Shown: positions 1-64,000 of the stretch, one piece after another | Numbering within the stretch: the stretch's first letter is position 1 | Layout: each line of letters starts with the position of its first letter | Assembly: GCA_964106915.2 (NCBI GenBank) | Contig: OZ066924.1 | Length of the DNA stretch: 64,000 bases | Reading direction: 5' to 3' (one strand) | From: Podarcis gaigeae | Lineage: Eukaryota | The notes under the pieces: model-generated | Told to the model about the DNA's origin: nothing | The model's input: the letters and a program-made list of their open reading frames with translations, nothing else | Database searches by the model: none | Made by a program: the position numbers and the translations under genes

Positions 1-2207
1 CTTTGCAAATAAGCTAAGGGAAAAATTTAAATGAGAGCACCTTGTTTTATCTTTTGTTAGCAGGTGGTGCAGATTTATTCCATGTTGATTTGGATCGTAA
101 TGTGAGGGGACAAAGATAGATAAATAAACAGATTCTTAAAGCTGATGAGGGCTGTGGTGTTAGGTATGTAGGTATTTATATACATTTAAACCCCTTTAAA
201 TAGTCATGACTTTTCAAAGGGAAGAGGGACTGATCATTGAAAGGATATGACTCTGCTTTAAATGGGGCCTAAAATGTGGGGGACTAGAATGTTAGAGCAG
301 TAATGTGGCTACTTGTCACCCTCCAAATATTGTTGGACTGCAACTCCCATCATTCCTGACCATTGTCCATGCTGCCTGGGACTGATGAGAGTCTGGTTCA
401 AATCTCAGCTTTGCTATGAAGCTCACAGAGTGATTTTAGGCGCAGCCAGTCATGCACTCCCAGCCCAACATTCCTCACAGGCTTGTTCTGAGGCTAAAAC
501 AGAAGAGGAAAGAACCACATAGGCCACCCCGAGTTCCTTTACATTTTATTTATTTTGCAAGAACAAATGAAATCACTTTTCGTTGCTTCTCAGTCCTGTC
601 AGTAAGGAAGGAGACTCCAATTGTGCAAAAGTATCTTTACTACATTTTTGGGTAACCCCCCCCCCCCCCGAATTTCTTGCAATATTTTGCATAGGTATTT
701 AAAAGTTGTGTTTGTGTATGTGGCCTGCACTTTCAAAGCTGTTCTTCCCACTCGACATGTCTGCACACATTAGTTATGCCCTAATTAAATCATGCTGATA
801 AATATCTAGCATGGCCGTGTGACTTTACTGTGTTTCAGGGGCTTTGCCCTGAACCTGAGAACCTTCACAATTTGCTTTGTCTGAGCAGTGTTGGTCATTT
901 TTTACAACCACACACTTGCAAGTGCCAGTACACAATGGTTGGTGGTGCACAGGCCTTTTTCTTTGTCTCTTGGTACTGGAAGCAAAGGCTAGGTGATTAC
1001 CTGGCATCCTAAGCCAATCACAGTGATTAGGAGAGACTAAGAGAGACTAATGAGGAGCCGAAGAGGAGAGGGAGCTCCAAAACAAACATTCATGTTTGAG
1101 CTTCATCCTGAACCTTTCTAACTTCAATGTCTCTGTTCTCCTTCTGCCCTCTGACTTCATTCCTTTTGTTTGGCCTCAAAGCACCAGGACTGTGCTAAGG
1201 AGGGACTGGGCCACTGCTGCCTTCCAAGCCCTGCTGGCTCCTGCTGGCCTGGTCAGAAGGTGGGGAAGGATTCTTTCTAGTTTCTTTCTATGTCAGCCTG
1301 GAGGGCCCTGAACTTGTGAGATCCACAGGTTCTTGGATCCAGTGGATCTAAAGTTACTGCCATATCCTTTGCAGGGCTTTCCTCTGACATCCTCCAGTGG
1401 TAGTTTTCTGTGGCACCACCAGCAATGCTGCTTTCTGGCAGTAGAGGCTGGTGCAGAGAAGCCGTCTCTGTACCAGCCTAACATTGGGTGGGGAGAAGGT
1501 AGGATTAAACTATTCTGTTGATGGGAAATAATTCTAGAGAGTTTGCTAAGCCAAACCATGGTTTAGTGCAAATGCTTGTGTGGTAGTGGCTCAAGTCCTG
1601 CTGTACAACTGTGAGCTAAGTCATGGTTTGGCTTAATTTGTCACCTGGACCTGTGCTCTTCGGTTGCTGATACTGCTGTCTGAGACTTTGAAACTAAACT
1701 GTAATCAACCCAGTTACAGATAGGTAGCCGTGTTGGTCTGCTGTAGTCGAAACAAAGTAAAAAAAATTCCTTCCAGTAGCACCTTAGAGACCAACTAAGT
1801 TATTGGTTTGAGCTTTCGTCTGCATGCAAACTTCTTCAGATACACCGAAACAGAAGTCACCAGACCCTTATATACAGTAAGAGGGTGGGGAGGGGTATTA
1901 ATCAGAAGGGTGGTGGGAACGGGTGATTGGCTGAGCTTGCTGCAAGACAGACCCAAAAAAGAAAATAACAACACCACTAGTAATCACAGCTCCCAAGTTT
2001 AAACAGTACAACGCATCATAAGAGATCTACAACCTCTCCTAGACAATGACAGTTCTCTTTCTCAAGCTCTGGGAGGAAGACCTTTCATTGCCTACAGACA
2101 GCCACCCAATCTTAAACAACTCACCCACAAAAATACAACAACCAGACTTAACATGAACACCGGTACCAGAGCCTGCAATAAACCCAGTTGCCAACTTTGC
2201 TGCCACT

Positions 2208-2556
2208 TGTGGGTTAAAGCCTCAGCGCCTAGGACTTGCCGATCGAAAGGTTGGCGGTTCGAATCCCTGTGACGGGGTGCGCTCCCGCTGCTCGGTCCCA
2301 GCGCCTGCCAACCTAGCAGTTCGAAAGCACCTCCGGGTGCAAGTAGATAAATAGGGACCGCTTACCAGCGGGAAGGTAAACGGCGTTTCCGTTTGCGGCT
2401 CTGGCTCGCCAGATGCAGCTTTGTCACGCTGGCCACGTGACCCGGAAGTGTCTCCGGACAGCGCTGGCCCCTGGCCTCTTAAGTGAGATGGGCGCACAAC
2501 CCCAGAGTCTGTCAAGACTGGCCCGTACGGGCAGGGATACCTTTACCTTTACCTTT
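2208..2556 (+). mobile_element. Sauria SINE inserted in the Penelope ORF
   Basis: gggttaaagcctcagcgcc...gcaagtagataaatagg...(ACCTTT)n tail. Confidence 0.9.
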
Positions 2557-3119
2557 TTACACCAGGACAACACCATTACTGGACCCAACAACATCAAACA
2601 TACCATCTCAGGCCTATTTAATTGCTCATCTTCTAACATTGTGTATGCCATCAAATGCCAACGGTGCCCTTCAGCTCTCTATATTGGACAAACAGGCCAA
2701 ACCCTACGCCAAAGGATAAATGGACATAAATCTGACATCAGGAATCTCAAGACAGAGAAACCAGTAGGAGAACACTTCAATCTCCCAGGACATTCTATAC
2801 AAGATCTCAAAGTATCTGTCTTATTACAAAAGAATTTCAGAAATAGACTGGAAAGAGAAGTTGCTGAATTGCAACTTATTACCAAACTTAAAACCATGGA
2901 GAGACCTGGTCTGAATAGAGACATTGGATTCTTATCTCATTATACATGATAAAGCTATTTTTAGCCATCTCACCCCTTGCTTTTTCCTGTAAGACCAATT
3001 GCAGTCATTAACAGTTGTCAACAGGTTTACCACACCTACCAGTCAATCACCACCCTTCTGAGTAATACCTCTCCCCACCCTCTCACTGTATATAAGGGTC
3101 TGGTGACTTCTGTTTCAGT

Positions 3120-3157
3120 GTATCTGAAGAAGTGTGCATGCACACGAAAGCTCATAC
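3120..3157 (+). ncRNA. Minimal type I hammerhead ribozyme motif in Penelope pseudo-LTR
   Basis: GTAT-CTGAAGA-a-GTGTGCATGCACAC-GAAA-GC-TC-ATAC: conserved CUGANGA, GAAA and UH boxes; stem I GTAT/ATAC; palindromic stem II; minimal stem III (AGCT). Confidence 0.75.
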
Positions 3158-3210
3158 CAATCACAAACTTAGTTGGTCTCTAAGGTGCTACTGGAAGGAT
3201 TTTTTTAATA

Positions 3211-3441
3211 CAGTGGTACCTCGGGTTAAGTACTTAATTCGTTCCAGAGGTTTGTTCTTAACCTGAAACTGTTCTTAACCTGAAGCACCACTTTAGCTAA
3301 TGGGGCCTCCTGCTGCCGCAGCACGATTTCTGTTCTCATCCTGAAGCAAAGTTCTTAACCTGAGGTAATATTTCTGGGTTAGTGGAGTCTGTAACCTGAA
3401 GCGTATGTAACCTGAAGCGTATGTAACCCGAGGTACCACTG
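3211..3441. mobile_element. Tc1/mariner (Tigger-like) MITE, family A
   Basis: TIR CAGTGGTACCTCGGGTTA, TA TSD. Confidence 0.9.
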
Positions 3442-6400
3442 TAATCAGCCCTGCAGCAAATAAAATCCCCATGTGGTTAGCCCACAGAACATTCTAGTAG
3501 CCTGCCTCTGTGTTTGTTGTCTGTGACACACTGTCCTGAAAGTGGAGATGAGGTTACCCATTGTTTTTTCCAGCATTTCCTAACTGGATACAATCCTCTG
3601 TACAGTCTTCTCCATTTATAAGATGCAGTAGAAAGGAATGCAATTTTTCATTACCTCCTAAATCTGTGTATTTTGCTTTAATAAATGTGAGTGCCACGCA
3701 CCACTTCCTTCCCCACCCTGTCAATTGCAACTAGGTCCTTAAGATGCTGTCGTTTTGGATCATAGAAATTGGGGACATAGGATGTTTTTTATTTGGGAAT
3801 ACTGAAGGCAACATAAAGTTTAACAAGCCGATCTTCAGCAGCCTTTCACTTGATTTGAGAGACAAGTCACCTGCTACTCCATTAGTACTTGGAAGATTAT
3901 AAGCCTTGGAGATTTAGCTGAGGATTAGTAAATTGGAGAGTGTACATTATCAGGCTAGGCTTAGAACCATGATTGTCTCTTGATTCATTTTCATTAGTGC
4001 TTTATTCAAATATCGCAGGAATTATGTAACGATGACGTTTCAGGAGAATCTGTCAGGAATTCTTTTCTTAATTTTTAAAGACACTTTTACCAAAAGTTAT
4101 TTTTATAACTCTGGCTTGCAGCGTGTGAAATCCATTTTGAAAAACAGGGATGTAGTTGAGTCAGATCGCTGGGGCAAGATGCTTTTAAAGGCTGTAACCG
4201 AACACAGGCTGTCACTTCATTTGGTGGCGCATTGAAGGAGGCAGGATGAAGTATAAGAAATACATAACCATTCTTGAAGCTGCAGTTGGGATCACTCCCC
4301 TTAACAAGAGAGAACTGCTCCCTGTGGTCCGACATGCAAACCTTTGGCAGCATCCAGGGTAAGTTGCTTATTGGGAAAATGAGTAAAAGTAAAAAGCAAA
4401 TATTTACTCTCTAGCTGTGTGCAAGAAAGCTGCAGGCATTGTCTGCAAATGGGAGAAGTGATTAATTTAGAAAGTTGCAGAAGCTGAAGTAGTTCTCTGA
4501 GGGGCATGTACATGATGCCCTTGGCTAACATAGGGGTTGCTGCGATAAATTCAAAGCATGGTCAGGAATGGCATTTTAAACTGCTGTCTAAATTTTTGAG
4601 ACAAGAACTTAGTAGATAAGACAATGCAGACTTAGAGCAACAGCACATTAAGTAGGAACGTAATGGATATTCCCTGAGCACATTTCCCACTACTCATTTT
4701 CAAAAATTCACTTCTTAACATTGTATTGGAAACCTAACAGATTTTTGTGCTGTTGAATAATAGAAAGTCAAGATTCTTAGCATTCCTTTTTCCACCTCCC
4801 TTTTCCAAAAAGCCTCTTCAACTAATATTACTGAATGGGATAATGCAAGGCAGTGATTCTTAACCTTTTGGGGGTCATAGAACTCCTTGAGAATCTGTTG
4901 AAAGCTATGGACCCCCTCCCCAGAAAAATTCAGACAGACACGTACACACAAATTTTTGCATACAATTAATTTTATTGCATAGGGTTTTTTTCTCCCTTGC
5001 TGCTAGTTCATGGACCCCAGCAATGCTATCCTTTAAAAAAAAAAAAGAGGTGCCAGAACTCACCATGAACACCTTCCTCATTCTCTTAGAATGGCAACCC
5101 GCCTGGGATGTTCTGGAACTGAGTTCTGGCGAGTTCCTTCTGAAAAAAAAAGCCCAGGTTAAGTACCCTGATGTCAGGCAAGCTTCAAAAAAGATTTTCA
5201 GTTCATTTTCCCTTCACAGCACAAACAACAGATTCTAGATATTTAATCTTTATTGTTGTGATTAATAACCAGCACATAAAACACATCCATATGTGCAGGG
5301 CTGGGTTGGATCATACAACACATAAAACAGGATCCCACTTTTTCCTAATCTCTGTTTTCAGGCATTTCAAAAGGACATATACACAAAGGTACACTTCATA
5401 GGTTTTTGCCTTTGTCAGTTTAGGAGTCCTGCACTGGTGATGAGCTGGTAGTGCACCAGTGTCAACTGGCTAACAGAAAGAATATTGATCATGTCCCTAG
5501 AAGGCTTTGGAAAAATTCTTCTTTCAGCATAGCTGCCTGACAATATGAGTAGCCAAATGGCGAATTTACTTAGCTTTCATTTTCAAGAAATGTTGCTCTT
5601 TAGTGTTTTCTCAAGAGAGTACTTGAGAATATGTTTTGTCACTTAGGAAGCCTTTCTGTTATAGCCAAATCAAGCTTATGTGCCACTTCAGCATGCATAT
5701 TTACCTTCATGACGCTGATGAATCTGGAGAAGAAATTAAGTTTTGCTGCAAAACAAGGAGCACAACTGACATGCAAGCAACATGTGTTATGCTGGATTGT
5801 AAAGATGCCCACGCCTCTGTGCAATGCAGGCATGTGCATGTGCTGCTTTTTGTTCTTACAGGTAGTAGCGTCTCATGCCTCAGGGAAGGCTGCTTCAGAA
5901 GGACCTCAATTTTGGAGGAACTTGTTGCAAGGGGCTCCCTCCAGAATGGGAGGTTGAAAAGCCCCTATGTGTATATGGAACATTCTGCATGTCAATCTGG
6001 ATTCTGATCACCATTAATGTTAAGTGTCTAATGTGTTCAGTACTCTTCAACTGAAATTCCAAACCAAACCAAAACCACCACCCAGGCTATAGTAGTGTTG
6101 CAATCTGGTCCTATTTTATGGCTTAGATTTTAGCTGCGGGTTTACTGTAAAGACTCTTTCAGCTGAAATACATAACTAGGAAATGTTACCTTGTTCAGCT
6201 GCAGCTCAAGACGCACTATGGCTTAATTTGCAGCCTGGCTGTTGCTGTGATGGTAGCAGGTATAAGAGAGTCTGTGGAAAACAAATCCAAGTGAGTCCAC
6301 AGGGCCCATCACACTCGTTCTGCAATGTGCACTACATTGAATTTGATGTTTGATTCATCCATAAATAGATGAGCCAGGTTTTAGTTCTCCCTTTATAATC

Positions 6401-7390: not shown

Positions 7391-8169
7391 CAGTGGTGCC
7401 CCGCAAGACGAACGCCTCGCAAGACGAAAAACCCGCTAGACGAAAGGGTTTTCCGTTTTGGAGGCGCTTCACAAAACGAATTTCCCTATGGGCTTGCTTC
7501 GCAAGAAGAAAGCCCATAGGGAAATCTCCGGGGACCTCTTTTAAATGCTAGCGGTGGGGAGCAAAGCCTTCCCCCCCCCTCCGGCCTTCAGAAGAGGTCC
7601 AGGAAGGCCGGCGGGGGCCGAAAGGCTTTGCTCCCCACCGCCAGCATTTTAAAAGCAGTCCGGGATAGCAGGGAAGCGCTTCCCGCTATCCTGGATGGCT
7701 TTTGAAGGCAGGCGGGGGGAGCAAAGACTTTTGCCCCCCGCCCGCCTTCAGAAGAGGTCCTGGACCTCTTCTGAAGCCTGGCGGGGGGCAAAAGTCTTTG
7801 TCCCCCCTGCCTGCCTTCCCGGGGGCTTTTAAATCGTCCCGGGACAGCGGAGAATTCCTCCGCTGTCCCGGGGCGATTTAAAAATGCTGGCGGGCGGCAG
7901 CGCTGCCGCCCGCCAGCATTTTAAGATCGCCCCGGACAGCGGAGAAGTCTCCGCTGTCCTGGGAAGGCAGGCGTGGGGGGAAGCAAAGACTTTCGCCCCC
8001 CGCCGGCCTTCAGAAGAGGTCGGGGGACAGACTGTCCTTGGACCTGGTCTGAAGGCGGTTTCCATAGGAACGCATTAATTGATTTTTAATGCATTCCTAT
8101 GGGAAACCGTGCTTCGCAAGACGAAAAGACTTGCGGAACGAATTAATTTCATCTTGCGAGGCACCACTG
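7391..8169. mobile_element. Tigger-like non-autonomous element with GC-rich internal direct and inverted subrepeats
   Basis: TIR CAGTGGTGCC.CGCAAGA, TA TSD; repeated gccttcagaagaggtc units. Confidence 0.85.
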
Positions 8170-12745: not shown

Positions 12746-12764
12746 TTGCAAGTTTGCTCTAGAG

Positions 12765-12903
12765 CAGGGGTGGGGAATCTTTGGCCCTCCAAATGTTGCC
12801 AGACTAGAGCTCCCATCAGCCCTAGTCAGCATGGCCAATGGTCAAGACTGATGGGAGATGTAGTTCAACAACATCTAGATGGTCAAAGATTGTCCCACTC
12901 CTG
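12765..12903. mobile_element. Small palindromic hAT MITE (related fragments at ~320, 15170, 15975, 32575, 50800)
   Basis: CAGGGGTGGG..CCCACTCCTG; TSD CTCTAGAG/CTCTAAAG. Confidence 0.78.
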
Positions 12904-15693
12904 CTCTAAAGAGCTCACATAAGCATTACCCCTGGTCTTTAAAATTTTTGCACGGGTGAATTTAGGGCTATGCAAGCAGACACTGGGTGCTGAGCCAAGG
13001 GGTGCCGTATCAAAACCTGGTAGGTGAGGTGCTGGGCTTTGGAAAGGAGGTGTGAGGCTCCTCCTGCCTCCTTCCCAAAGCCTAGTTAGTGCTTTCCCAG
13101 TTTTGGGGAGGAGGTAAGAGGGCTCTAGGATCTTGTCTCGCACCTCCTTCCCCCAAATGGACACCTCCTTAGCTGCCTTTGGGAAAGCATCACAAGGGCT
13201 GGGGTGCCACATTTTGGCTGCGCACAGGCCAAAATCTCTGTTTGATGACCTTGCCCAATGCATTGCAGTGAAGCCCTCAAAGGGCTTATGAAACAGAGTG
13301 GCCTTTCTCAGTTTCATGAAAGCAGGATGGCCCATGCTGAGGTGGGTCTCCTTGGGAGCAACATATTCCCCAGTACTGGGGCCATTGCTCTCAAAAAGTT
13401 GCATTTTGTTCTTTAAAAAATGTATTTATAGTAATTGAGAAAATCTGAAGTGAGGCTTTCTCTGAAGTTCTCTGTTTAAGGGGCATGTGGTCTCTTGCAG
13501 ACGCTGCCTGAGATATGCCAGATTGGTGTACGTGCAAATGTAGTATATATGGCAGTTTGTTGGCATTCAGCAGGTTTTGGAGGGTTGTGTGCCTGCTCCA
13601 GTCACCTGCAGTGTCATAGCTGCACACTGCTTCTGCTTCTCTTTCATTCTTCCAGTACTAAGAGAACCCAGGTTGTGTGTGCAACACTGCATAAGGAGCT
13701 GATCTTCTTGAAAGTAAAAAAGGCTTGTAGGTCTTCTGTATTTGGGGTGGGGGGCTCACCCCAGGTGAAATACAAACTGCTAGCCTCTAACTGTCAGTGG
13801 ATCAGTTCCACTCCTTTCTAGAGATGTATGATGCCTGGCCTGAACTCCTGTGGTAGATTTCCAGTCCCATGTCCAGATTATGGAGGAGACAGAGGCTTGG
13901 AGACTGAAATAAGTAGAAACTAATAAGTGGGGGCGGCAGGGGGGAGTAACGGGAAACAATCTGGGAGACAGAGGCATGCAGGCTGCAATTCTATGTACAC
14001 ACCTGAGAATTAAACCCCTTTGAACTCAGTAGGATTTGCTTCAGAGTAGATAGGCATATGAATGCATTTAAGTCTAAGGAGTCAGTCGGGTACAGAAAAT
14101 GGAAGGATTGGGGAAAGAAGGAGACAGCTGGATGTATTTGAGAAACACAGGCCAAGGTATGAAAAGTGCAAGATTTAAGTTGCTTGTAGGTCTGGGACAC
14201 ACATGATGTTTGACATGGAGGCGCTGCCACCCCCCACATCCCATTTTCCATGGTGACTGAAGCTTTCCATGTACTGTTTAGAAGCTTTTGCCATGTGTAT
14301 TGGGGCCATCTTGTTGCAGGCCTCTTCCACACACCTCCTGCACCAGTCACTGGGAATCTGGAGGGTCCAGGGCACACGGTGAGCCCTTCCTGTGGAGTGG
14401 AGAATTGGTGGGTACAGAGAGTCCATCGTGGCAAATGGTGTGTGTGGTCCTGCATCTTCCCCTCGATACACATTTCTTTCTTACCAGCAGGGTTTTGTTC
14501 ATGGACAAGGTCATGTGCTGATGCGTATACTGCTTTGCAAACATCTGTGAGAACAGGACTTTTTCTGTTCTGAAAAGTGTCTGCTTATTTTGCTTGTGAC
14601 CTAAATAAACCCCCTGATTACTGTGAAAGAAGAGATTTGGATGTCATTGGAGTTTGACTCCAAATGACAGGATGGCAAGGGGAGCTTATAAAAGCCAAAG
14701 AACATAATTTCACTTAAATGAAGCTAGTGCTGAATAGCCTTGAAGAAGAAACACAGCAAACTAGCTGTACAGATCAAGCAAAACAAAAACAGCAAAGCAT
14801 TGAGATAGAATTTGGTTCTTACAGTGCATTTGGTTTGAACTGAAGTGTGTCATTCTCCAGATTATAGATGTAATGCTGATTTGCTGTAAAGCAGGCTTTA
14901 CAAACTGGAAGCCAGAATTGGAAAAATGTGTTGCTCCTCCCTACTCTTGTAAGCCTTAACCATGGCTTAGCATTACATCTCCAGTGATATGAACCATGGT
15001 TAAGGTCAGCAACACGCCCTCTAAACAAAGGTTTAAAACTTGATTTCAACTCTGCTTAATATTGGAACCCTGGAATTAGTATCAGAGGCTATTCAGATGC
15101 AACACTAAACCATGGTTTGAAATGATGAGCTCCTGCCTACCCTTCGTCTGAGCAAAGGAGCTTGGGGAAGTGGCACTGGGGAGCCTGCTGCCGTCCAGAT
15201 GTTGCTGGGCTCCAGCTTCTGTCAGCCACAGCCAACATGACCAATGATCAGGGGTGAGGGGAGTTGTAGTCCAACAACATCTGGAGGGCCACAGGTTCCC
15301 TGGTCTCAGGTGTTTACAAATGAATGTGTTTAGGGGCACCTCTCCCTAGATGCAGCCCAAGCCTTGCACCATGCAGGAGATCCCTGGGAAGAGGTCCTGG
15401 AAGGAAATGCACAGCAGTCTTCTGTTGAATGTAAAATTAGAGGAGCTTTTCCGTTATGGACCTACTTAGGGCCAGACATTTATACTAAATGTCAGTGTTC
15501 TTCTGTTTGTTTATAAAGCATTAGCCCATAAAAATGTTATAAATTTCTACAAGTTAAAATTTAAAATAAACTGAAAGAAAAGGAAAATGGGGAGGAGTCC
15601 TAAGGCAATGATAACAAGGCATTACAAGGCCTCTATAATGATTGACTTAAAGCTGTGGAATGCTCTTCTCAGTAAGGTGCAGAAATCGATCTA

Positions 15694-15969
15694 CCATATT
15701 GGCCCAAATATAACCCGCACTTTCCCCCCAAATTCTGACTGTGAAAGGTTAAAGTGAGGCTTATATCCGGAACTGAGCGCTGTGCGCCCGCCTCCTGGCA
15801 CTACTGCCCTGAACAGGGGATGGGGGCAGCCGGCACCGGCTTGGGGAAGGAGTGCCGGGAGGCAGGAGTGCCGGGAGGTGGGCGCGCAGTGCTCAGTTCC
15901 GGATATAAGCCTCACTTTAACCTTTCACAGTCAGAATTTGGGGGGAAAGTGTGCCTCATATTCAGGCCA
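15694..15969. mobile_element. Palindromic Tc1/mariner (Tc2-like) MITE with ~120-bp arms
   Basis: cccccaaattctgactgtgaaaggttaaagtgaggcttatatccggaactgagc recurs in inverted orientation at ~15890-15945. Confidence 0.75.
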
Positions 15970-17754
15970 GAGGTTTTTGGACTACAACTTTCGTCAGCTG
16001 TGGCTGTGCTGGCTGAAGCAGATGGGCATCATACTCCAAAACATCTGGAGGGCACCAGGTTGAGGAAGGCTTGATCTACAGCTTTTCTTTTAGAAAGGGC
16101 TGCTGCAAGGCTTTTGATCTGGTTGGCTAGGTGAGTGGCAGAATGTCTGTCATGCAATTCCGTGGGTGCTGTGGTCTTTTCATTGTGCTTTCTGAGTATG
16201 ACTGTTGTTTTATTTTGTAATCTGCTTTGAAGAATTGTAGATTGGGCAGTTACTTGTGCATTGTTTTGGGGTTTTTATTTTCAAAGAACCAAAATCGTGT
16301 GTGCTTTCTGTCTTTGATGGAGGCAACACTGACACTACAGCAAAAGATCTCTTCAGGTTTATGTTGGTGGTTGTGAGACCCGTAGTTACTCAGCCCTGGA
16401 AAAAGGAAGGCCTTGCCATTGCAAATTGGTATGCCAAGCTATGGAATAGTTAACATACTGAGTTAGAGTAAATGAAAAACCTGGAAGATCCGGAATATTT
16501 TGTCTATGTTAAGTAAAATTTTATATCTCATGTGAGCCATACTTATCAATGAGGGATTATTCCATTACAATGCAAACAATTATGGAATGAGTTGGTAACT
16601 GTATCAGTATGAATTTTAGTACGAACTAGATTTTTTTTCTAGCATTCTTCAGGATGTTTTGTTCTTCTTTGAGTATGTAGTCCTCTCAGCTCTTGAGAGA
16701 ACTCTGAAATATTACTGTTGTGCTTTAACTTAGTTCTTTAAAATAAAATATATTTTTTGTCCCACCTAAATGATTTTTCACAATTGTAATTTCAAAACAT
16801 TAAACTCCTCCTCCGTTGCCTAGCCTAGAACATTCTGAACTATATTAATCTTCAAGTGCACAAGAATTTGCAGTTAATCATTTTCAAAGACTTGAGTAAT
16901 TTCATCAACAGGAAGTGCATCTCTTCCTTGAAATAAGATGCAACATAGCAAATGTATACTGCTGCCTAGTTCTGAAATAGAGAATCAAATTTTGTTAGAT
17001 GTGAAGCAGGTGCTGGGTAATTTTTTAATTTTAATCTGCATTGTAATAAAGCCTTAGTTGATGTTTTAAAATGTCACCCTTAATGGTTACTGTATTAGTT
17101 GAACACATATATATTGACTTCTTAATTATCACTATAATAATTAAATACATATTTGACAGCTTAACGTGAGTTAATTGTGGGTCTGGTACATCCCTCTCTT
17201 GCAAGGGATTGCAAGACTCAGAGGGAATAATATTGCTAATGTTTGAAAAACTTCTCATTATTTCAGAATAAAGCTTTCCTCTTTGCTCTCTCTCCCCCCC
17301 CCCCCCCCGCAGCTCCCCATTCCTTTTTGTATCTTGCTGTTCCCAAATAAGAAACTTTCCTCTGGATCTCTCATCTTGCTTCCTGTTCTGCTTGTCGATA
17401 TGCCAACCTGGACATGGGTGGCAGGAGAGGCCTGGCCACAGAACGTAGTTCTGCCTGAACCCAGAGCTCCGTACAGGACAGATATCCTGGCCCCAAGCTG
17501 TGCAGGGCTTTGCACACCAAAACCAGCACTTTGAACCTAGCCTGGTAGCTAATTGGCAGCCCATGCAATTATTTCAGCAGTAGCATAATACAGTGGTGAT
17601 ATTCTGCCCCAGTGAGCCGTCAAGCTGCCATGTTTTGAACTAGCTGAAGTGTCTAGGTCAGCCTCAAGAGTAGTCCCACAGAGAGGACATTGCAGCTTGT
17701 GGACAAGCTAACCTGATCCAGAATCGGCCATAGCTGTCTCACTCACTGAAGCTG

Positions 17755-17984
17755 AAACAAAAAAAAAAAAAAAAAATCCTTCCAGTAGCACCTTAAAGAC
17801 CAACTAAGTTAGTTCTTGGTATGAGCTTTCGTGTGCATGCACACTTCTTCAGATACGAAGAAGTGTGCATGCACACGAAAGCTCATACCAAGAACTAACT
17901 TAGTTGGTCTTTAAGGTGCTACTGGAAGGATTTTTTTTTGTTTTGACTATGGCAGACCAACACGGCTACCTATCTGTAACTGAA
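17755..17984. mobile_element. Hairpin mini-insertion of two inverted Penelope ends
   Basis: ~95-bp inverted arms matching the 3' end of the 1711-3208 element; 12-bp TSD TCACTGAAGCTG (17743-17754/17985-17996). Confidence 0.88.
17819..17856 (-). ncRNA. Minimal hammerhead ribozyme motif, minus strand
   Basis: Reverse complement is identical to 3120-3157. Confidence 0.7.
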
Positions 17985-18241
17985 TCACTGAAGCTGGTAA
18001 AAGACACACATAGCCACTGAGGTCACCTGGGCCTCTGGTAATGGAGAACACCCCCAGACGATGAACCTTCTCCTTTGGTGGGGGCAGGGGGTAGGACTGC
18101 ATTCAAAGCAGGCAACTGACCAATGATGAGAGGTTGTGTTGATGTCAGATGGGAGCAGTCCCCAGCAGGTCTTCTTATCAGTTAGGCATACCTGCAGAAG
18201 GCAGGTCAATTCTATTTTTGAACCCACTACCGAGGATTTTA

Positions 18242-20721: not shown

Positions 20722-20809
20722 TTAAAAAATAGTCCAGTAGCACCTTAGAGACCAACTAAGTTTGTTCTTGGTATGAGCTTTCATGTGCATGCACACTTAT
20801 TCAGATATG
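20722..20809 (-). mobile_element. Single-arm Penelope end fragment (degenerate ribozyme)
   Basis: ccagtagcaccttagagaccaactaag...gtatgagcttt..gtgcatgcacactt.ttcagat. Confidence 0.75.
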
Positions 20810-22069
20810 ATATTATGTTAATACATGTAAAATGTACATGTGCTGAGGGTAACGTAGATTTCATGAAACTTTGAAGTGCTATGAAAATAAAACCATTTGA
20901 GATAGAGGGGAAAAAATTAAGGGGGTTTCTTTCAACCACAAGAGAAGGGTGTAGACCAAGTTTCATCAAAATCTGAGATGGTGGGTGACGAAACCCTTGG
21001 TTTTTTTGCGTTGATCTGATGTGGAATGACCCCAGGGAGAGATGGAAAGAAGGACTATGGCATAAGAGGATGGGTTGACAAGTGATGAAAAAGAGTTATT
21101 TTGAGTTATCTCTCCTAAGAAACCTCATTAGCTAAGAAGCCATACTATCTCTCGAGTTTGATTTCTTCATTGTCCGGTTTCTTAGGAAAGATGACTCCAG
21201 ATAATATCCCTAACTCCCCTACTACTTGTCAGCCCTTCCTCTTATCCTTTAGTCCTCCCTTTCCTAAGCTTAGGCCATTGGGAAAGAGGGCAGCGCATAG
21301 TAGGGATAAGCCAGAAACCAGAACCACCTGTGCCTCCGCTGAGAGGCAACAGCACTGAGATCTGTGGCTGCAGCCACAGGAGGACAACGAGGCAAAGGCT
21401 CCCTCGGTGCTGACTTAGCAGTGAAATGGGACCAGGACCCTGGAGAATGCAGGATGGGATCTTGACCTTGCAACACAATAAAATTACTGCATTTCCTGTT
21501 AAGTGTAACTAAAGCAACTATTGTCTCCAATTCTGGGAATAGAAATTGTGTGCCCCATGCCAGGTGAGCCTGCCCATCTTCTACAATTGGCCACTGAGGC
21601 CTTGCTCTCTGGGCTTTGTGGGATAAGGCCTTTTTAGTATGTAGCAGGGCTGAACTTGTATGTGTGGGTGAACTTTATATTAAGTGCATATTTGTTTGTG
21701 TATTGTGTGTGTGTTTTCAGACACTTCCTTCTTGATAATTGGCTTCTAATACTGATTTCCTGTTCTGAAAGTAACTTGACATTGGTTTTAGGAGGAAAAT
21801 ATGTAGGGCATGCATTGGATAGGTGCTAAAAGACCACTTTGTTGTCTTAGTTACTGCACTGCAATCGCTCAGTGTATATGCATTGCTCTGGCCAGTGCAT
21901 ATCTATTGCATAAAGGGAGACAAAACAAATGTACAGTAGTTACAATGACCATTGTTTTGCTTCTTCAGGATGAGGGCTCGCGAAACAGGATACCTGAAAG
22001 AGTTTCTGGTGGGCTTCCTAAGCCCGCTTGGCTTGCTGCCCTCAAGTCGCCTTTTCTCCTTCCCAGGCG

Positions 22070-22520
22070 CTCCACAGGCGCGCGCTGCCGGGCCCTCTTC
22101 CCTTGTTGCTGCTCTGCCCCGGAGCGCGCGCGCGCCTTCCTTCTCGGCGGGGCTGGGGCGGCTCTTCTCTCGCCGCTTGGCCTCGGCCGGAGCCCCGCGC
22201 TCGGCTCCCGGGGAGGCGCCGGAGGCTGAGCCGCGTCGGGGGCGGGGCGCGGGCGGAGTTCGGCGGGGAAGTCGCGTCGCTTCCGAGGGGGACCCGCCAG
22301 TCCCGGGCGAAGCGTCGCGGCGACCGCGGAGATGCCGGTGAGAGGAGGAGGAGGCGGCGGCGGCGGCGGGGGCTCTCTGCTGCGCGCGGCCGCCCTGCTC
22401 TCGCCGTGGCTTCGGGTGAGTGGGCGGAGGCGCCCCGGGCGGGCGGGCGGGCGGGCGGGCGGTGCTGGCGCGGAGGGCCGGGCGGAGGAAGCCCTTCCCC
22501 GGAGCTGCCTTCGCAACTCG
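22070..22520 (+). promoter_or_regulatory. CpG island / TJP2 promoter
   Basis: Very high GC and CpG density against an AT-rich background; GC box GGGGCGGGGC at 22239-22248; spans first exon. Confidence 0.9.
22332..22415 (+). CDS. TJP2: TJP2 first coding exon (ZO-2A-type N-terminus), MPVRG10SLLRAAALLSPWLR
   Basis: ATG in good context (gagATGc) inside a CpG island; peptide begins MPVRG and ends WLR like the recalled mammalian ZO-2A N-terminus; phase-0 donor CGG|GTGAGT joins in frame to APGMEELIW. Confidence 0.9.
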
Positions 22521-23382
22521 CTTTGTGGACCTTTCTGCCGAAGAGTTGAAATGTCACAGGCCTTTGGCCCCCTGCCGACGGTTTTATTTCTCCATCCTCC
22601 TCTTCTGCCAGCTGCGAGGAACAGGTCATGAGTCTGAGGAAGGGAGCTCGAATGTCCCAGTCAGTTTGTTAAACTTTAATATGCTCCAAGACACTCTGTT
22701 TACGTTTTTCATATACTCTGAAAATCCAGTGTTAAAATCTGAGGTGTGTGTCCTCTTTGCTGCATTGTTTTGATTTTATGTACTTTATTTTTATGCATCA
22801 ATTTTATGTATAACGTTTGCCTTTGTTTGGTTTGAGAATGGTGGGGTTTTATGGACTAACTTAAAAGGCATACTTCCATAAAAGAATAAGATCCTTTGTA
22901 TCTTCCTTTATGCTGTTTTTATTCCTTTTACTTATATTAATTTAACATAACTGTAAATTATGTTCACCTTGATCATTAGCTGGCTGTACCTAGGAGCTTC
23001 ACTGAGAAGAATGCTTTATATTAATACCCAGATAGCCTAATAACATAAAGTGAGATAACAATTACTGGGATTGCATAACATGAGTAATGAAGGCTGAGAT
23101 GCAGTGACAAGCCTGTGGCCATCCATCAAGCCCCATGATTCATATTCAGGTTTAACACATACTCTGCTTGAGATTTCCGTGTGTATGAGTTTATGGAGAT
23201 GACTCCACAAAGAGAATCATTGGGAAAACTTGCAAAGAGAACTACGTATTTCTCAATTGCTGGGGGTGTGGCGACTTCATAAGTACATGTTGAAAAATCT
23301 CCCTAGAAAGTGCAGTCTGGGTTTGAAGTCATTGTAGGGATCATATAAGCTTAAATTTAGAAGGAACTATGAGGGTCATTAC

Positions 23383-31075: not shown

Positions 31076-31111
<36 letters not shown>

Positions 31112-31131
31112 TATTATTATTATTATTATTA
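31062..31131. repeat. (ATT)n(AAT)n(ATT)n compound microsatellite
   Basis: Seen directly. Confidence 0.95.
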
Positions 31132-31510
31132 TGGCCACATGCCCTTCGATCCCAGCGTCACCCTCACTTTGCTGGTGATATGAGTACAAGTGACAGCAAA
31201 AATATAGCCAAAAAAGCAAACCACAATCCCTAGTTGAAATAAGCCAAGAATAATGATTTGTTGAAGCTGCTCATCAGAGGAGGGAGCAAAGCAGGTGCAG
31301 GTTCTCCCTCCCCACGCCCACCTGCCCCACATGGTCAGTTCTTGGTCTGACCCTTAGGTGGAAAAATATTCCCCAATTATGGCCTGCTGTAATGTGTGAA
31401 TGCATCCTACACAACACAAATATTCACTTAATATTTGGGGGGGGGGCTGTGAGAGGACCACAATATTCTTTTGATTGTAATTTTTTTTAAAAAAAACTGA
31501 TTTTAATGTT

Positions 31511-31721
31511 CAAACAAAAAATTCCTTCCAGTAGCACCTTAAAGACCAACTAAGTTAGTTCTTGGTATGAGCTTTCGTGTGCATGCACACTTCTTCATCT
31601 GAAGAAGTGTGCATGCACACGAAAGCTCATACCAAGAACTAACTTAGTTGGTCTTTAAGGTGCTACTGGAAGGAATTTTTTTTGTTTTGACTATGGCAGA
31701 CCAACACGGCTACCTATCTGT
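31511..31721. mobile_element. Second hairpin mini-insertion of two inverted Penelope ends
   Basis: Inverted arms nearly identical to 17755-17984; 16-bp TSD AACTGATTTTAATGTT (31495-31510/31722-31737). Confidence 0.88.
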
Positions 31722-34225: not shown

Positions 34226-34425
34226 NNNNNNNNNNNNNNNNNNNNNNNNNNNNNNNNNNNNNNNNNNNNNNNNNNNNNNNNNNNNNNNNNNNNNNNNNNN
34301 NNNNNNNNNNNNNNNNNNNNNNNNNNNNNNNNNNNNNNNNNNNNNNNNNNNNNNNNNNNNNNNNNNNNNNNNNNNNNNNNNNNNNNNNNNNNNNNNNNNN
34401 NNNNNNNNNNNNNNNNNNNNNNNNN
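34226..34425. other. Assembly gap (200 N)
   Basis: Run of N; true length unknown. Confidence 1.
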
Positions 34426-36434: not shown

Positions 36435-36562
36435 GTTACAGGTAGGTAGCCATGTTGGTCTGCCGTAGTCGAAACAATAAAAAACTCCTTCCAGTAATAC
36501 CTTAGAGACCAACTAAGTTTGTCATTGGTATGAGCTTTCGTGTGCATGCACACGTCTTCAGA
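36435..36562 (-). mobile_element. Single-arm Penelope end fragment with hammerhead core
   Basis: Tail plus pseudo-LTR end; TSD TCAGAAGTA (36426-36434/36563-36571). Confidence 0.8.
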
Positions 36563-36684: not shown

Positions 36685-38594
36685 CAGGGGCGCCGACTTA
36701 TAAAAAATATTGGGGGGGGGCCCATACCGGGGTCCTGCCCCGGGAAGTTTTCTAAATTTTAGATGAAAATTAGTGAGTTTTAAAGTTTTTTTAAGGTATT
36801 TTAGAGTCATATGATCAACATTAGAACCCCGAAAACTCGACTCTCTATAACTCCACACTCCGGGAAACTCGACAAGCCTGAAACACTTTTTGGCTTTGAA
36901 AAAAGAAACAAAACATAAACACGCACGGTATTTTCGTAAAAAGCTAATTTAATTTACAGTAACAATTATGCTTATAGACTATTACAGAGCAGTGAATATA
37001 TAGCTCTGAAAAGACTGAAATGATATTTAAATAAATCCTAAACTATCATTAAAAGAATAAAACATAAAATATTGCTGTCGCACAGTAATAGCACTTTGAT
37101 TAATAAGTGAAATAGCTAATTTAAGCTTACTTTGAATAAGGCTGAGGGTTCATTAAATAAAAATAATATCTCAAAGTTAATGCTTTAATACAGTTAATAA
37201 AGTTAATACAGTATGCCTAATACTGTATGTAAATACTGTAATACTGTATGTAAATAACGGGCTTTAATTGGGTCTTACACCCTAAAAATATTTAAGTATT
37301 TGAAAATAACTAATACAGTACTATAGTAATATAGAAATACAGTACTAAACTAGTACTAATATTTCGAAACTGAAAATTTAACATTCTGTATGTATTTAAT
37401 TCTCTATTTTATAAAGATTTTTAATATCTGACAGTGAGTTTGGAGTAGCCCAATGCAAAAATCCTGAGGATCCATGTGGATCCATGCTTTGTAACCACGT
37501 TTTTGCACCACTGTGACCCTAGGCAACAGTGGGTGCGTGATTTTTTTGGTGCAAGATGTAGCCATGGACATGCTATGTGATCTGATGGTGAATTTGGGGT
37601 GACCCAATGCAAAGATCCTGAGGATCCATGTGGATCCGTGCTTTGTAACCACGTTTTTGCACCATTATGGCCCCAGGACACAGTGGGTGCGTGATTTTTT
37701 TGGTGCAGGCTGTAGCCATGTACATGCTATGTTATCTGATGGTGAATTTGGGGTGACCCAGTGCAAAGATCCTGTGGATCCATGCTTTGTAACCATGTTT
37801 TTGCACCATTGCAGCCCCAGGCAACAGTGGGTGCGTGATTTTTTTGGTACAGACTGTAGCCATGGACATGTAATGTGATCTGATGGTGAATTTGGGGTGA
37901 CCCAATGCAAAAATCCTGAGGATCCATGTGGATCCGTGCTTTGTCACCACGTTTTAAATGGGGAGGGAAGGAAAAACACAGAAGGGACAAGAAGCACAAG
38001 AGGGGTGTGCGGAGAAGCAGCTGGCTAAGAATGCAGGGGAGGAGTTTAACGGGGTGGGGGGGAGGAAAGGAAGGCAAAAGTCCCCCCCCCAAGCCAGCCC
38101 TCTCTCTCTCTTTCCCACCTGCACCCCTAGAGCACGGAGAGGAGGAGGAGGTGGTGGGCTGGAGCCTGCACGCAGTGTGACTAGGAAAGAATTAGAAGGA
38201 AGGACTCGATCCTTTCCTTAACCCTCTGCTTGCCAGGAGGGCAGGGGATTCCCTGCTCTTTGTTGAGTTTGAGCAAACGCAGCAACAGAAGCGGGTGGGC
38301 AGTAAGACCCTGAGGCAGAATGCAGGAAAGCAGCAGCTTCCGCCTTCCCTCCGCCCGACCGCCCGATCATATTTTTGCCTATTTTTGCTCCTGCGCTCCG
38401 GCTCCAGGGACCACACATTCACTCAATAACACGCACAGACATTTCCCCTTACTTTTTAGGAGAAAAAATCTGCGTGTTATAGAGCGAAATTTACAGTAAT
38501 AATTTTCTTAAATTATTGGGGGGGGCAGAGCCCCCCCAAACGAATTTTTGAGGGGGCTCGGGCCCCCTCAGGCCCCATGGAGTCGGCGCCTATG
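36685..38594. mobile_element. hAT-type non-autonomous element containing the right part of the Tc2-like element
   Basis: TIR CAGGGGCGCCGACT/AGTCGGCGCCTATG; 8-bp TSD ATCCATTC (36677-36684/38595-38602). Confidence 0.85.
37425..37955. repeat. Same 154-bp tandem repeat, ~3.5 units
   Basis: Same unit; one copy has a small deletion. Confidence 0.92.
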
Positions 38595-40270: not shown

Positions 40271-41791
40271 AATATAAATAAATGCATCAAAGCATAATGC
40301 TAGTTACAACACTGCAAATTCAACAAAACACAGCCTGGGGGGGGTACACCTTGCTGCATCCAGGAATGTGTACATACTCTCATACTTCTAGCCTGGGGCT
40401 TGAGGGGGTTGGAAAGTGGAAACTGTGTGTACCAAGACAACCTAAATTTTATATTATAAATAAATTCTGAAAGCTTGGAATATAAGGTTGACTTCAGGAC
40501 CCATTCTGACTCAGATGCTTAGGCTGCAAGTGCATGAAATGCAACTTGCTCTCGGTGTAACAGAGTGTTGCTATAAGCCTGTTTTTATGAATAAACAAAT
40601 GCACAAGTAAACTGGACTAACCTCTTTCTCCTCCCCACCTTGAGTTGCTTGCAGTTGTCTTGTATGAGAGATTCTTGACCGTTTCCATTTGGTTGTTTCA
40701 TCATTACAATCAAGCTCTTGCATTGCCTCAGTCTGCTCTCTGGAACAGTTAACTATTCCAAACAGTTGTCTCATAGGAGCAGTAGCACATCAAATGAGGC
40801 CACTTGTGTCAGTGGCTCACCTGCGTGATGAAGCTCTGGAAGGAACTTGCCAAAGATTGGGGATGCTGAACACCTTTCATTCAGACACTTTTTCCTTTTT
40901 CCTGAGTGGCCTCATTTGCTCTTCTCAGGCATGTGTCACAAAATACAAAAAGTCACAGAGCAAGAGACAGCCTGCCAAGTGGTATATTATCTGAAGTAGC
41001 TTCTATACCATTAGGCAGGCTGTCTCTCGCTCTGTGACTTTTTTTGTGAGAAGTGCAGATTTCTCCTCTTCATGCAAACTAGTGCGGTAAGCAAGGCAGC
41101 ATTCTTCCAGTTCCTGCTTTGAAAGCCAGGAGGTGGCATCATTGAGCTATAGGTTTGCACACCAGCTGTGGGAGCCTCTTGTGGAGAGAGGAAAGATACT
41201 GGAGGTGTTTGCATCCCCTCTGCCTCACCTCTGATGGGAGAAGGTCAGAAGAGGAAGCCTGGGATGGACTGAGCAGCAAGACACGTGGGAGCTGAGACTG
41301 TTTACAGTACAGAGTTGTCCTTTTCTCATTTCTTTCCCCCAGTAGCTTTCCAGCTGTGATTGCAGAAGCCAGCCAAATGGCATATGCCCCAATACGCAAA
41401 GTCTGTGTCCTAAATGCTGCTTACAGATCAGGCAAACACTTCTCCTGTAACTGCGAATTCCTCACGTTTCTGCATATTCTTTGGGAATGGGGAGGAGACT
41501 GTGTGTTGATGCTTGCCTAGTGGTGACACCAGCAAGTTACTTAAATAGGAATTAAATTGAGGTACTGGGTTACTTATTTTCTGTTTTAAGATAGTGACAT
41601 TTGTTTTGGGAGTAGATGTGTTGCCATTTGTACATCTGTGGGTTTTAATATGTCATTGTGTGAAATGAAGGCAGGATTGGCTGAGTATGTAGGGCACAAT
41701 TGTATTAGAATTACATAACAATGTTTGAGTGGTGGAAACTGATGAAAAGACGGGGATGTTAGAGTCCCTTAACAGATTATAGTGTGCCACA

Positions 41792-46523: not shown

Positions 46524-47488
46524 CCGTATTTTTCGCTCTATAACACGCACCTGACCATAACACGCACATCGTTTTTAGAGGAGGAAAACAAGGGAAAAAA
46601 CATTCTGAATGAAACAGTGGATGTATCATTTTTGTGCTTCATGCTGTGGCCACAGACATGTGATCTGATGGTGAATTTGGGGTGACCCAATGCAAAAATC
46701 CTGAGAATTCCTGTGGATCCATGCTTTGTAGCCACGTTTTTGCACCATTGCAGCCCCAGGCAACAGTGGGTGCGTGATTTTTCTGGTGCAGGCTGTAGCC
46801 ATGGACATGCTATGTGATCTGATGGTGAATTTGGGGTGACCCAATGCAAAGATCCTGAGAATCCCTGTAGATCCATGCTTTGTAACCACATTTTTGCACC
46901 TTTGCAGCCCCAGGCAACAGTGGGTGCGTGATTTTTTTGGTGCAGGCTGTAGCCATGGACATGCTATGTGATCTGATGGTGAATTTGGGGTGACCCAATG
47001 CAAAGATCCTGAGAATCTCTGTGGATCCATGCTTTGTAACCACATTTTTGCACCTTTGCAGCCCCAGGCAACAGTGGGTGCGTGATTTTTCTGGTGCAGG
47101 CTGTAGCCATGGACATGCTATGTGATCTGATGGTGAATTTGGGGTGACCCAATGCAAAGATCCTGAGGATCCATGTGGATCCATGCTTTGTAACCACATT
47201 TTTGCACCTTTGCAGCACCAGGCAACAGTGGGTGCGTGATTTTGGGGGGGCAGGCTGTAGCCATGGACATGCTATGTGATCTGATGGTGAATTTGGGGTG
47301 ACCCAATGCAAAGATCCTGAGGATCCATGTGGATCTATGCTTTGTAACCACATTTTAAGTGGGGAGCGAAGGAAAAACAAAGATGGGACATGAGAGGGGT
47401 GTGCAGAGAAGCAGCTGGCTAAGAATGCAGGAGAGGGATTTAACGGGAGGGAGGAAAGAAAGGCAAAAGTTTCCCCCCACCCAAGCCA

Positions 47489-51813: not shown

Positions 51814-52291
51814 GTAAGTTAACAAGTATTTGCAGAAATATTTGCATTCTATCATTAAGGAGAAGTTAACAACACTGCACTTAGAATAAGTATTAATACG
51901 TCTGAAATATAAAGACCTGATATTACAAAAACTGTAATATTTTAAATGGAAAGGGTGGGAAGGGAGATTATTTCTCAGGCCTGCTGTAGAGATGCTGATG
52001 TCTTGTAAAAAGCATTTACCTGCGAAGCTGATTATCATGTTTAAAGATGCTCAGCGAGTGCACAGGCTTTTCTCTGCACCAGTGACCTGCTGTTTAGGTG
52101 GGCATTCTGCTGGCATCTTAACTGTGGAGCAGCTGCATGGAATGCCAGCTTGGCTGAAGTGCTCTGCTACATTGCGTCTAAGTTGGGTTTGTTGGGTTTT
52201 ATAAACGTAGTGATAATTTTTTTGCAGCTGAATGTAAAATGATTGTGGCTTTTACAAGGAAATACAAAATTGTTCTCATTTTTGCAAACAG

Positions 52292-52853
52292 ATAGTTAAA
52301 AGACCTCGCCAAGTGCAGCTCCCAGCTGTGAGAAGAAGCCCCTCTCTGGACTATGACTACCGGGCCTTTGATGTTATGGATAGTCGTGCCGAGTTTGATG
52401 GCAGAAGCACTCGAAGTGGCTACAGTGAAAGGAGTTGGTATAGTGGGAATGGGGGCCGGAGCCAGAGCTGGGGAGACCACCTGGATCGGGGCTACAGGAC
52501 TGGCCAGCACAGCAGAGAGCGCAGCTGCAGTCGCGATCGAAATCGCGGCCGGAGCATGGACAGAGAGAGGAGCTTCGACCACGAATACCAAAGACCCCGA
52601 AGCAGAGGCAGGAGCGTGGATAGAGAGGATGAATATGACCGGCGCTATGGTGGTGATCGGAGTGTGCCCCGAGACTACGACTGGAGAACCCGTCTTGAAG
52701 CCCCTCGTGAGAGGGAAGCCAAGAGCGGGAGCAGAGACCGGCTTAATTCCCGCAGCCCTTCCCCTGAATTGCAGCCTCAGTATGACTATGGAGCACATCA
52801 GGACCCCAGTGGGCCAGTTAATGTTCTCCTCACAAAAAGCAGATCAAACGAAG
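52292..52853 (+). CDS. TJP2: TJP2 large exon, Arg/Ser/Asp-rich linker to the start of PDZ2
   Basis: IVKRPRQVQ...RSPSPE...GPVNVLLTKSRSNE; overlaps ORF 52313-53026; ends at non-canonical donor AAG|GCAAGT. Confidence 0.93.
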
Positions 52854-53589
52854 GCAAGTGCCCAGCATCTTTTGGTGGGAGGTTGAAAGGAATGCCTCCT
52901 CCTTGCTTTTACCTCCTCTCCCCTTGGCCGTTTAACCCATTGATTGCAAACCTCTGTTTGCTTGGCACCTCAGTTTTTATTTTTTCCTTATTGTTTCCTG
53001 AAATTTACACAAGCGCAAAAAATTAAACAAGAGACAAAAAATTTAGGATACCTTACAAATATATTGAGGACAAAGTGCCATGTAAACGTCCTAGAAGAAC
53101 GTCTGGTACACACTCCACGGTGTCAAAACTACTGAGAAGGACCCAAAGATGCCTTAAATTTAAATGTATACCTTGGTTTACAGAATATAGGGCAAGCAAT
53201 TTGATCCACTTCTTTTTCTCAACATTAGGAGCCCACAAGCTAGCATGGAACTCGGTCAGATCAGGAACCCATGAAGCTGAACTTGCCTGCCAGCCCTGCA
53301 TGGTACCTTGCCCTGGCACTTGATACTTCCTTATTTTTGCATCCCAGGCAGTCAGCCAGATTAGTAGCTATATGTAAAATCTTGGTGACCCTCCCTACCT
53401 GACCAGTAGAGTCTATTTGCCCTGATGTGCCACAGCTGCATTGCTCAGGTCCCCCTTTGTCTTCCAATCCACTGAGAAAGACAAAATACCATTGATGGCT
53501 CCCTCCACTTGCATATATTGGAAACCAGTGGCATGTAGCATGCTTCATGTGTCAAGCTGCAAAACTGTCTCTTATTGTTCCACTTACAG

Positions 53590-63377: not shown

Positions 63378-63920
63378 TGTCAGGCCTGGTCGTTGTCCTC
63401 TTCAGATCACCACACAAACGCTTCTTGTTCTTTTATAACTTTTTATTGCGTATTAACAAAACAATCTTATAAACGGTTCTTAAATATCATTCCTCAGAGT
63501 CACTTCTTTCAGATCCCTTCTGAGCTCTGCTTCTCCGTGACCAGCCACTCTCAAAATGGCGAAGGCGCCCTTCCCTTCGCTTTCCCACTCTTTTTCCTAC
63601 CCTCCTGGCTAGAGCTGGCCTGTATCTCCCCTCCTCCCAATCTGAGCTAGAACTGAACCCTGGCCTTTCCTGGGAACAGCCGGTCCCTCCCTCTTGTTCC
63701 TCTTGCTCCCTTCTATTAGATTCACTGCTCTCCCTCCCCCCTTGGGGAATGCTTTCTCCCTCTGAGAAACTGGAAACGTCTAACTCTTCCCTGACATCAC
63801 CCCCTCCCCTAAGCCCCCCTTCCTCCTCCTCCTCCTCGCTCTCCTCTGTTTCTGAAGGACCGAACCCTATGAACTCTTCTTCCTCGCTATCTGTCTCTTC
63901 AAAAATTTCTTGAAGATGCC
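63378..63920 (-). mobile_element. Probable Gypsy-type LTR, interrupted by a Penelope fragment
   Basis: Starts TGTCAGG; minus-strand AATAAA at ~63445; CT-rich body; other end not visible. Confidence 0.45.
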
Positions 63921-64000
63921 AAAACAAAAAAAATTCCTTCCAGTAGCACCTTAAAGACCAACTAAGTTAGTTCTTGGTATGAGCTTTTGTGTGCATGCAT
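63921..64000 (-). mobile_element. Penelope end fragment, cut by window edge
   Basis: Same arm sequence as 17755 and 31511. Confidence 0.8.

Follow-up and report, generated by a model that had tools for sequence, protein, structure and literature searches.

Penelope-like elements (PLEs) typically insert in a layout that combines an inverted truncated copy, a 30–40-bp tail at one end and a short target-site duplication (TSD) (PMC8557442, PMC3846280, PMC8969392). The mechanism behind these inverted, one-tailed insertions is called undefined in the account of Craig et al. 2021 (PMC8557442), and Arkhipova et al. 2013 discuss self-priming on an antisense template as a source of palindromic junctions, a question that their text leaves open (PMC3846280). 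For PAc, an element of Anolis carolinensis, biochemical work established that the element protein, a predicted dimer, nicks and extends both strands, and that reverse transcription begins at two adjacent internal RNA start sites that bound the tail; the portion of that report considered here contains no model of inverted insertions (Frangieh et al. 2024, PMC11167929). The minimal hammerheads of metazoan PLEs, in turn, are described as weakly active and have been proposed to form dimers, and the same source records pairs of motifs on opposite strands, about 100–700 bp apart, along with many solo motifs derived from truncated PLEs (PMC4209133).

The 64,000-nt stretch of Podarcis gaigeae DNA analysed here (hereafter the window) contains a 230-bp hairpin that is the shortest form of this known back-to-back PLE insertion and thus belongs to a class of structures already described. 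Like the canonical endonuclease-bearing (EN+) PLE unit, the hairpin is arranged head to head, carries a tail on one arm, is bounded by a TSD within the reported range of ~8–12 bp and has a palindrome at its junction; it differs from that unit as described in that both arms are minimal and devoid of an ORF, that the entire insert is a single hairpin and that its ends cluster 31 nt behind a TATA-box match (PMC3846280, PMC8557442). The first-pass annotation of this DNA had suggested that MITE-like hairpins would arise in this way by a retrotransposition route. The retro-insertion with its TSD stands, whereas the route is not new, the layout having been published before. A literature search, with older subscription literature outside its scope, found no study that describes short PLE hairpins in reptiles or a clustering of 5' ends at the start site of a pLTR. 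The value of the hairpin lies in its use as test material and as a mechanistic footprint rather than in a new system, and minimal hairpins of this kind are short enough for every junction to be read.

Structure of the hairpin insertion

The insert (positions 17755–17984, 230 bp) is flanked on both sides by an exact 12-mer, the TSD TCACTGAAGCTG, which lies at 17743–17754 and again at 17985–17996 on the plus strand. Its body is made up of two inverted arms of 88 nt (17763–17850 and 17857–17944) that are 99% complementary and separated by a 6-nt loop, and the fold of the whole insert has a predicted energy of −156.6 kcal/mol. The 88 nt common to both arms consist of a 74-nt core and a U-tract. 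In the element numbering used here, +1 denotes the first base of stem I of the hammerhead motif, which is found at 17856 on the minus strand and at 3120 in a longer copy of the element described below. The left, tail-less pLTR arm (17755–17856, minus strand) extends from +1 to the U-tract and amounts to 102 nt because its A-run has expanded to 18, as against 9 in the right arm. The right arm, on the plus strand, holds the shared part from +7 to the U-tract (17857–17944) with an incomplete hammerhead, to which a one-sided tail of ~40 nt is added (17945–17984, ending at 17981–17984). The loop (17851–17856) corresponds to +1 to +6 of the element, belongs to the left arm only and is connected to the right arm by a blunt join without microhomology.

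A complete minimal hammerhead motif, and thus a putative ribozyme, occupies 17819–17856 on the minus strand and is composed of a 4-bp stem I, CUGAAGA, a bulged A, a palindromic stem II, GAAA, GC and UC, the same anatomy as that of the minimal hammerheads of metazoan PLEs (PMC4209133). The plus-strand arm, which starts with the third base of CUGA, is devoid of the first two bases of this box and of the 5' strand of stem I. A descriptor for minimal hammerheads matched twice in 128 kb (both strands), at 17852–17819 on the minus strand and at 3124–3157, and among 20 shuffled sequences it gave no match in 19 and two matches in one. A search of Rfam yielded 31 matches, none of which reached the gathering score and none of which belonged to a hammerhead family.

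Much of the first-pass description is borne out by these observations, namely a 230-bp insertion with a 12-bp TSD, an extra ~40-nt tail on the right arm only, a left arm that starts at the U-rich tract and a ribozyme that is complete on the minus strand and lacks its first CT on the plus strand. Its statement that the two arms copy the same ~95 nt in opposite directions holds for the direction and slightly overstates the length, the shared part being 88 nt.

Two other candidate classes were considered for the insert and rejected. A miRNA precursor was dismissed on a best Rfam score of 61.5 bits against a threshold of 90, such matches reflecting the hairpin shape. Non-LTR retrozymes are described as head-to-tail tandem arrays in which each hammerhead is complete, whereas the insert is head to head with one arm incomplete and, again in contrast to the retrozymes, does not end at the hammerhead cleavage site (+34/+35) (bioRxiv 10.64898/2026.07.22.740005).

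Parent element and other copies

The pLTR sequence is present at seven places in the window, which represent six insertions and nine arms. The copy that discloses the parent element is a long one (1711–3206), itself built of two inverted arms. Its tail-less arm (1934–3206, plus strand) encodes the C-terminus of the reverse transcriptase (RT), a CX4CX2C linker and an endonuclease (EN) that matches GIY-YIG, followed by the 3' UTR and the pLTR, and its tailed arm (1711–1933, minus strand) reaches about −91, through TATA, CACCC and CCAAT motifs. The segment 1934–2946 aligns with residues 362–585 of the RT+EN protein P0002 (RVT_1 + GIY-YIG), and the endonuclease part is 94% identical to that protein, 85–89% identical to Zootoca vivipara gene models and 59–68% identical to turtle proteins, in keeping with a lacertid host. 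The arm, for which identities to P0002 of 84% and 92% were obtained, is interrupted by a repeat at about 2208–2556. This ~350-bp repeat, which we take to be Sauria-SINE-like, splits the ORF of the long copy. The right TSD of the same copy (about 9–10 bp, one mismatch) is likewise interrupted, in this case by a ~235-bp element at about 3208–3442 with 15-bp terminal inverted repeats.

An RT followed by a C-terminal GIY-YIG domain, an inverted copy with a one-sided tail and a TSD of variable length, and a pLTR with a hammerhead, the last at the level of the motif, together place the parent element among the EN+ PLEs. The Penelope origin proposed in the earlier annotation is supported by this long copy, which carries the same pLTR as the hairpin and encodes the RT end and the GIY-YIG endonuclease. 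The CX4CX2C linker between RT and EN is of the CX2-5CxxC type that marks the Neptune clade and also the Nematis clade (Craig et al. 2021, PMC8557442). The hairpin is therefore composed of two pLTR ends of what appears, judged by the linker, to be a Neptune-type PLE.

The nine Zootoca vivipara gene models (P0003–P0011) that carry the endonuclease segment of the element form a curiosity of their own. Eight of the nine also contain PF00619, presumably the CARD domain, and the combination may reflect exon capture or an error of gene prediction. Scans of metagenome contigs for pLTR motifs gave 0 matches.

Another hairpin of this young subfamily, inserted independently, lies at 31511–31721 (plus strand) and is distinguished by a different loop, of 4 nt, and by a TSD of 11–16 bp. 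Over the 74-nt core the four arms of both hairpins show no difference, which is to be expected of a young subfamily, and the plus-strand hammerhead of the second hairpin, with only 2 bp left of stem I, was not caught by the descriptor. The remaining copies are a solo tailed pLTR stub at 36435–36562 (minus strand; 5' end at +3/+4; TSD of 9 bp), a solo tail-less stub at 20724–20810 (minus strand; 5' end at +2), for which a TSD was sought and none found, and a tail-less stub at 63920–64000 (minus strand) that is cut by the end of the window, its 5' end lying outside.

Support for the locus in public contigs

Logan contigs from 4 of 23 runs, representing organism A (two samples), organism B and organism C, were compared with the locus over 17400–18230. 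In all four runs, the tail and the unique right flank are found together on single contigs, with 0–1 mismatches. This evidence pertains to the right junction, the A-run at the left junction having been skipped in the comparison and none of the contigs listed spanning the whole insert. No empty site was encountered among the matches listed (15 of 252 joint rows). The insertion is common to closely related species labels, and an assembly artefact, a possibility that the first-pass annotation had held against its own interpretation, is unlikely as the origin of the hairpin because contigs of four runs, with three species labels, bridge the right junction.

The same contigs provide a view of how arms of this family are joined, as far as the tool-selected matches listed allow (15 of 252 joints and 24 of 1286 loose ends). 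In eight of these 15 joints one arm ends exactly at +1 and the other at +51 to +103, in three of the 15 the first arm ends at +3 to +7, and in the remaining four both ends lie inside the ribozyme (+16 to +37) with 2–3 nt of microhomology; among the matches listed, the second-arm ends spread from +16 to +106. Near-symmetric junctions are numerous and differ from one another; at 17857 in X1, 29 contigs carry G>A, 29 G>C and 10 a 2-nt loss. Loose ends also pile at 17856 (115–132 contigs per run), a pile that is partly forced since the reference stops at +1, and the consensus beyond 17856 stays native for 3 letters and then diverges in X1 and X2, whereas in X5 and X7 it largely follows the native sequence. 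A joint between 17822 and 17857 in X5 forms a minor class in which the arms are connected via stem I and the whole ribozyme makes up the loop. This stem-I joint looks like a true cDNA snap-back, and, together with the four joints inside the ribozyme, it fits better with fold-back or template switching. A single non-native C was present in two of the five +1 joints with extra letters among the matches listed (12 of 302 rows), which is no more than a hint of a copied cap G; for L1, an extra G is reported to mark full-length insertions (PMC11702581).

Ends of the arms and the predicted RNA start

The 5' ends of arms in the window cluster. Six of the nine end at +1 to +7 (individually at +1, +2, +3/4, +3/4, +6/7 and +7), both arms of the long copy extend beyond this region, and one arm is cut by the window. 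That four insertions have ends within a 4-nt span corresponds to a P of about 1.5e-5 under a crude uniform null.

The upstream part of the long copy offers a candidate reason for this clustering. Relative to +1, TATATAAG is positioned at −31, CACCC at −45 and −70, and CCAAT at −89; the first of these is a TATA-box match (3089–3096, plus strand) with a putative promoter function, and an Inr-like TCAGT lies at −5 (3115–3119). Such a spacing of TATA and Inr is the textbook Pol II arrangement. By chance, the TATA pattern would occur in the 8-position slot with a probability of about 0.003, an estimate made after the fact and from a single element. Upstream of the hammerhead, at 1826–1935 (minus strand) and at 3050–3120, both arms of the long copy contain a combination of CCAAT, CACCC, TATA and Inr-like motifs that resembles that of an LTR. 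A scan for sigma-70 promoters found nothing, the model being bacterial and not applicable to a vertebrate. With its TATA/CCAAT/CACCC set the pLTR of the lizard element is unlike the promoter of Drosophila virilis Penelope, which is described as internal and TATA-less (PMC2377424), and TATA and Inr-like motifs have been noted in the pLTR of Pen2a from A. vaga (PMC3846280).

On the strength of these motifs +1 is predicted to be the RNA start, and run-off at the RNA 5' end would be the simplest reading of the arm ends. At 17755–17984 the two landmarks are inseparable, +1 being the exact 5' edge of stem I as well. The first-pass annotation had both cDNAs stopping at the ribozyme fold. This part of its proposal is not supported, since the arms include part or all of the motif, and in the copy at 1711–3206 both continue past it; nor is an RT stop at the fold supported by geometry, because the RT meets the motif at its 3' side (+38), yet the arms end at +1 to +7. 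The central position of the ribozyme in the hairpin would thus follow from its likely place at the very front of the transcript, about 31 nt behind TATA, and not from a block to the RT. If the 5' ends do represent the RNA start, a monomeric transcript would yield only ~130-nt stubs, which would explain both the many solo pLTR fragments and the need of long copies for tandem read-through. A useful addition is the testable prediction that the centre of such a hairpin marks the RNA 5' end.

The 3' ends of the same nine arms fall into two groups; five, all tail-less, lie in the U-tract between about +81 and +95, and four, all tailed, lie at about +131, such that tailed arms begin about 40 nt beyond the U-tract start of the tail-less arms. 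Loose contig ends pile at corresponding positions, at 17981 in all four runs (53–71 contigs) and, among the matches listed, at 17938 in three of the four (56–61 contigs). A second RT start site would accordingly be placed at about 17981, at the end of the tail. The two 3' start points agree with the pair of RT start sites on either side of the tail in PAc, and the two elements further have in common a hammerhead in the pLTR; PAc differs in that it belongs to the Poseidon clade and starts at an AC-rich stem-loop, whereas the present element has a Neptune-type linker and a start at a U-tract (PMC11167929).

Origin of the two arms

The hairpin is probably a dead-on-arrival insertion of a Neptune-type PLE, generated by priming on both target strands, run-off of the cDNAs at the RNA 5' end and head-to-head joining. 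The element protein would nick the two target strands 12 bp apart, and each strand would prime one cDNA, the starting points on the RNA being the two predicted internal sites, the U-tract and the end of the tail. Both cDNAs would then run to the predicted RNA 5' end, immediately before the hammerhead, whereupon repair would join them head to head with the loss of 6 nt from one.

The argument for two separate primings is built on sequence private to each arm and on the polarity of the loop. The bases +1 to +6 are present only in the tail-less arm and the tail only in the tailed arm, and in the long copy at 1711–3206 each arm also holds sequence that is absent from the other. The 6-nt loop, moreover, has antisense polarity on the strand that holds the tail-less cDNA, and for this reason fold-back of one cDNA cannot make both arms; fold-back of the tail-less cDNA has no source for the tail, and fold-back of the tailed cDNA would give a loop of the opposite polarity. 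Two primings are consequently the better reading for the insert at 17755–17984, unless the loop was inverted later, an event that could mask an origin by fold-back. The proposal of the first-pass annotation that both target strands were primed is supported by this private sequence and by the ability of the anole PAc protein to extend both strands in vitro; conversely, a hairpin that argues for two primings ties that in vitro activity to genomes. Because the arms have ~88 nt that were copied twice, the template must have been either two RNAs or one RNA with the pLTR present twice; in the latter case the arms, which overlap by 88 nt in element coordinates, could come from different places on one transcript. 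It is in this overlap that the hairpin would differ from L1 twin priming, with which it shares a second priming on the other strand, an intact TSD and an end-joined inversion point; the twin-priming segments of L1, as described, overlap by at most a few bases (PMC11702581).

Several other routes to such a structure deserve consideration. A single priming followed by self-priming or fold-back copying, either on the cDNA or on an antisense template, has the merit of being a published model for palindromic junctions (Arkhipova et al. 2013, PMC3846280). The quasi-palindromic motif would favor it, four of the 15 joints listed (of 252) and the one stem-I junction fit it, the loop polarity of the second hairpin (31511–31721) is compatible with it, as it is with two primings, and at the sole site that differs between the two hairpins both arms of each hairpin share the base. 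Even so, fold-back seems unlikely, given that the loop of the insert at 17755–17984 sits on the tail-less strand with no source for the tail, that each arm of the long copy contains sequence of its own and that the pairing of the cDNA 3' bases is predicted to be at most 0.05. The reading of the first-pass annotation, in which both strands prime and the RT then stalls on a hammerhead fold, possibly a dimer by which the two RNAs are also held together, is in our view improbable. The coincidence of +1 with the 5' edge of stem I, the position of the tailed arm end (+7) and of the second hairpin's arm ends (+3 to +7) in or beside the CUGA box, and the proposal that minimal hammerheads act as dimers (PMC4209133) are all in keeping with a stall; a block, however, would be expected at the 3' side of the motif (+38 or stem II), parts that the arms did copy, and both arms of the copy at 1711–3206 passed the motif altogether. 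In addition, the predicted minimum-energy fold of +1 to +80 forms stem II and not hammerhead stem I, PAc insertion in vitro is reported to be unchanged by catalytic mutants (PMC11167929), and Naiads, described as lacking canonical hammerheads, form inverted insertions nonetheless (PMC8557442). Nor would a ribozyme dimer be needed to bring two RNAs together, the PAc protein being itself a predicted dimer (PMC11167929).

A solo stub turned into a palindrome by replication template switching after insertion, or an artefact of assembly, would be in line with the absence, among the contigs listed, of one that covers the whole insert or bridges the left junction, but either is very improbable in view of the intact 12-bp TSD that flanks both arms, the agreement of the two arm ends with the two start sites of the family, the bridging of the right junction in four of four runs and the presence in the same window of a second hairpin with its own TSD. 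The identity of the 74-nt cores in all four arms of the two hairpins might suggest copies of one non-autonomous master, be it a true MITE or a hairpin RNA mobilized whole. There is hardly any likelihood of this, as the loops and left ends of the two hairpins differ, TSDs measure 12, 11–16 and 9 bp, dozens of junction types occur in public contigs and the hairpin has no promoter inside. A MITE with fixed termini and a TSD of fixed length is thereby largely refuted, and the single fixed junction with a fixed short TSD that the first-pass annotation had named as the mark of such a master was not observed, since junctions and TSDs both vary. Finally, it is tempting to extend the favored reading of two primings with run-off to a more general scheme in which a complex of two RNAs and two target strands is the default mode of PLE integration; in this lizard family a TATA-driven transcript would start at the hammerhead, both cDNAs would run off the capped end, and the poorly cleaving minimal hammerhead would pair the template RNAs. 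This extension is speculative and, on balance, rather unlikely. Were it correct, short hairpins would preserve in the genome, at base resolution, the intermediate of PLE integration and would also be a recurring source of perfect double-stranded RNA.

Surroundings of the hairpin

Contig depth rises in both flanks of the hairpin (17480–17620 and 17988–18043), which implies that it adjoins fragments of other, older repeats; summed contig depths were not taken as copy numbers. Other palindromes in the window (15700–15969, 58572–58838, 40947–41043, 7480–8021, 12757–12911 and 31080–31132; 72–94% complementary) gave no motif with the hammerhead descriptor and are probably MITEs or simple repeats. 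The window further contains a tandem unit of ~150 bp in two arrays (46613–47356 and 37426–37955), 85–94% alike, and a 200-N assembly gap at 34226–34425. An Arg/Ser/Asp-rich ORF is located at 52238–53026. Searches of Pfam gave no match for the ORFs at 52238 and 63487, and a search of PDB gave none for the ORF at 52238, which nevertheless resembles what we take to be an exon of the tight-junction protein ZO-2; the hairpin may be situated in the upstream region or within an intron of that gene. A GC-rich island is found at 21900–22670, about 4 kb from the hairpin.
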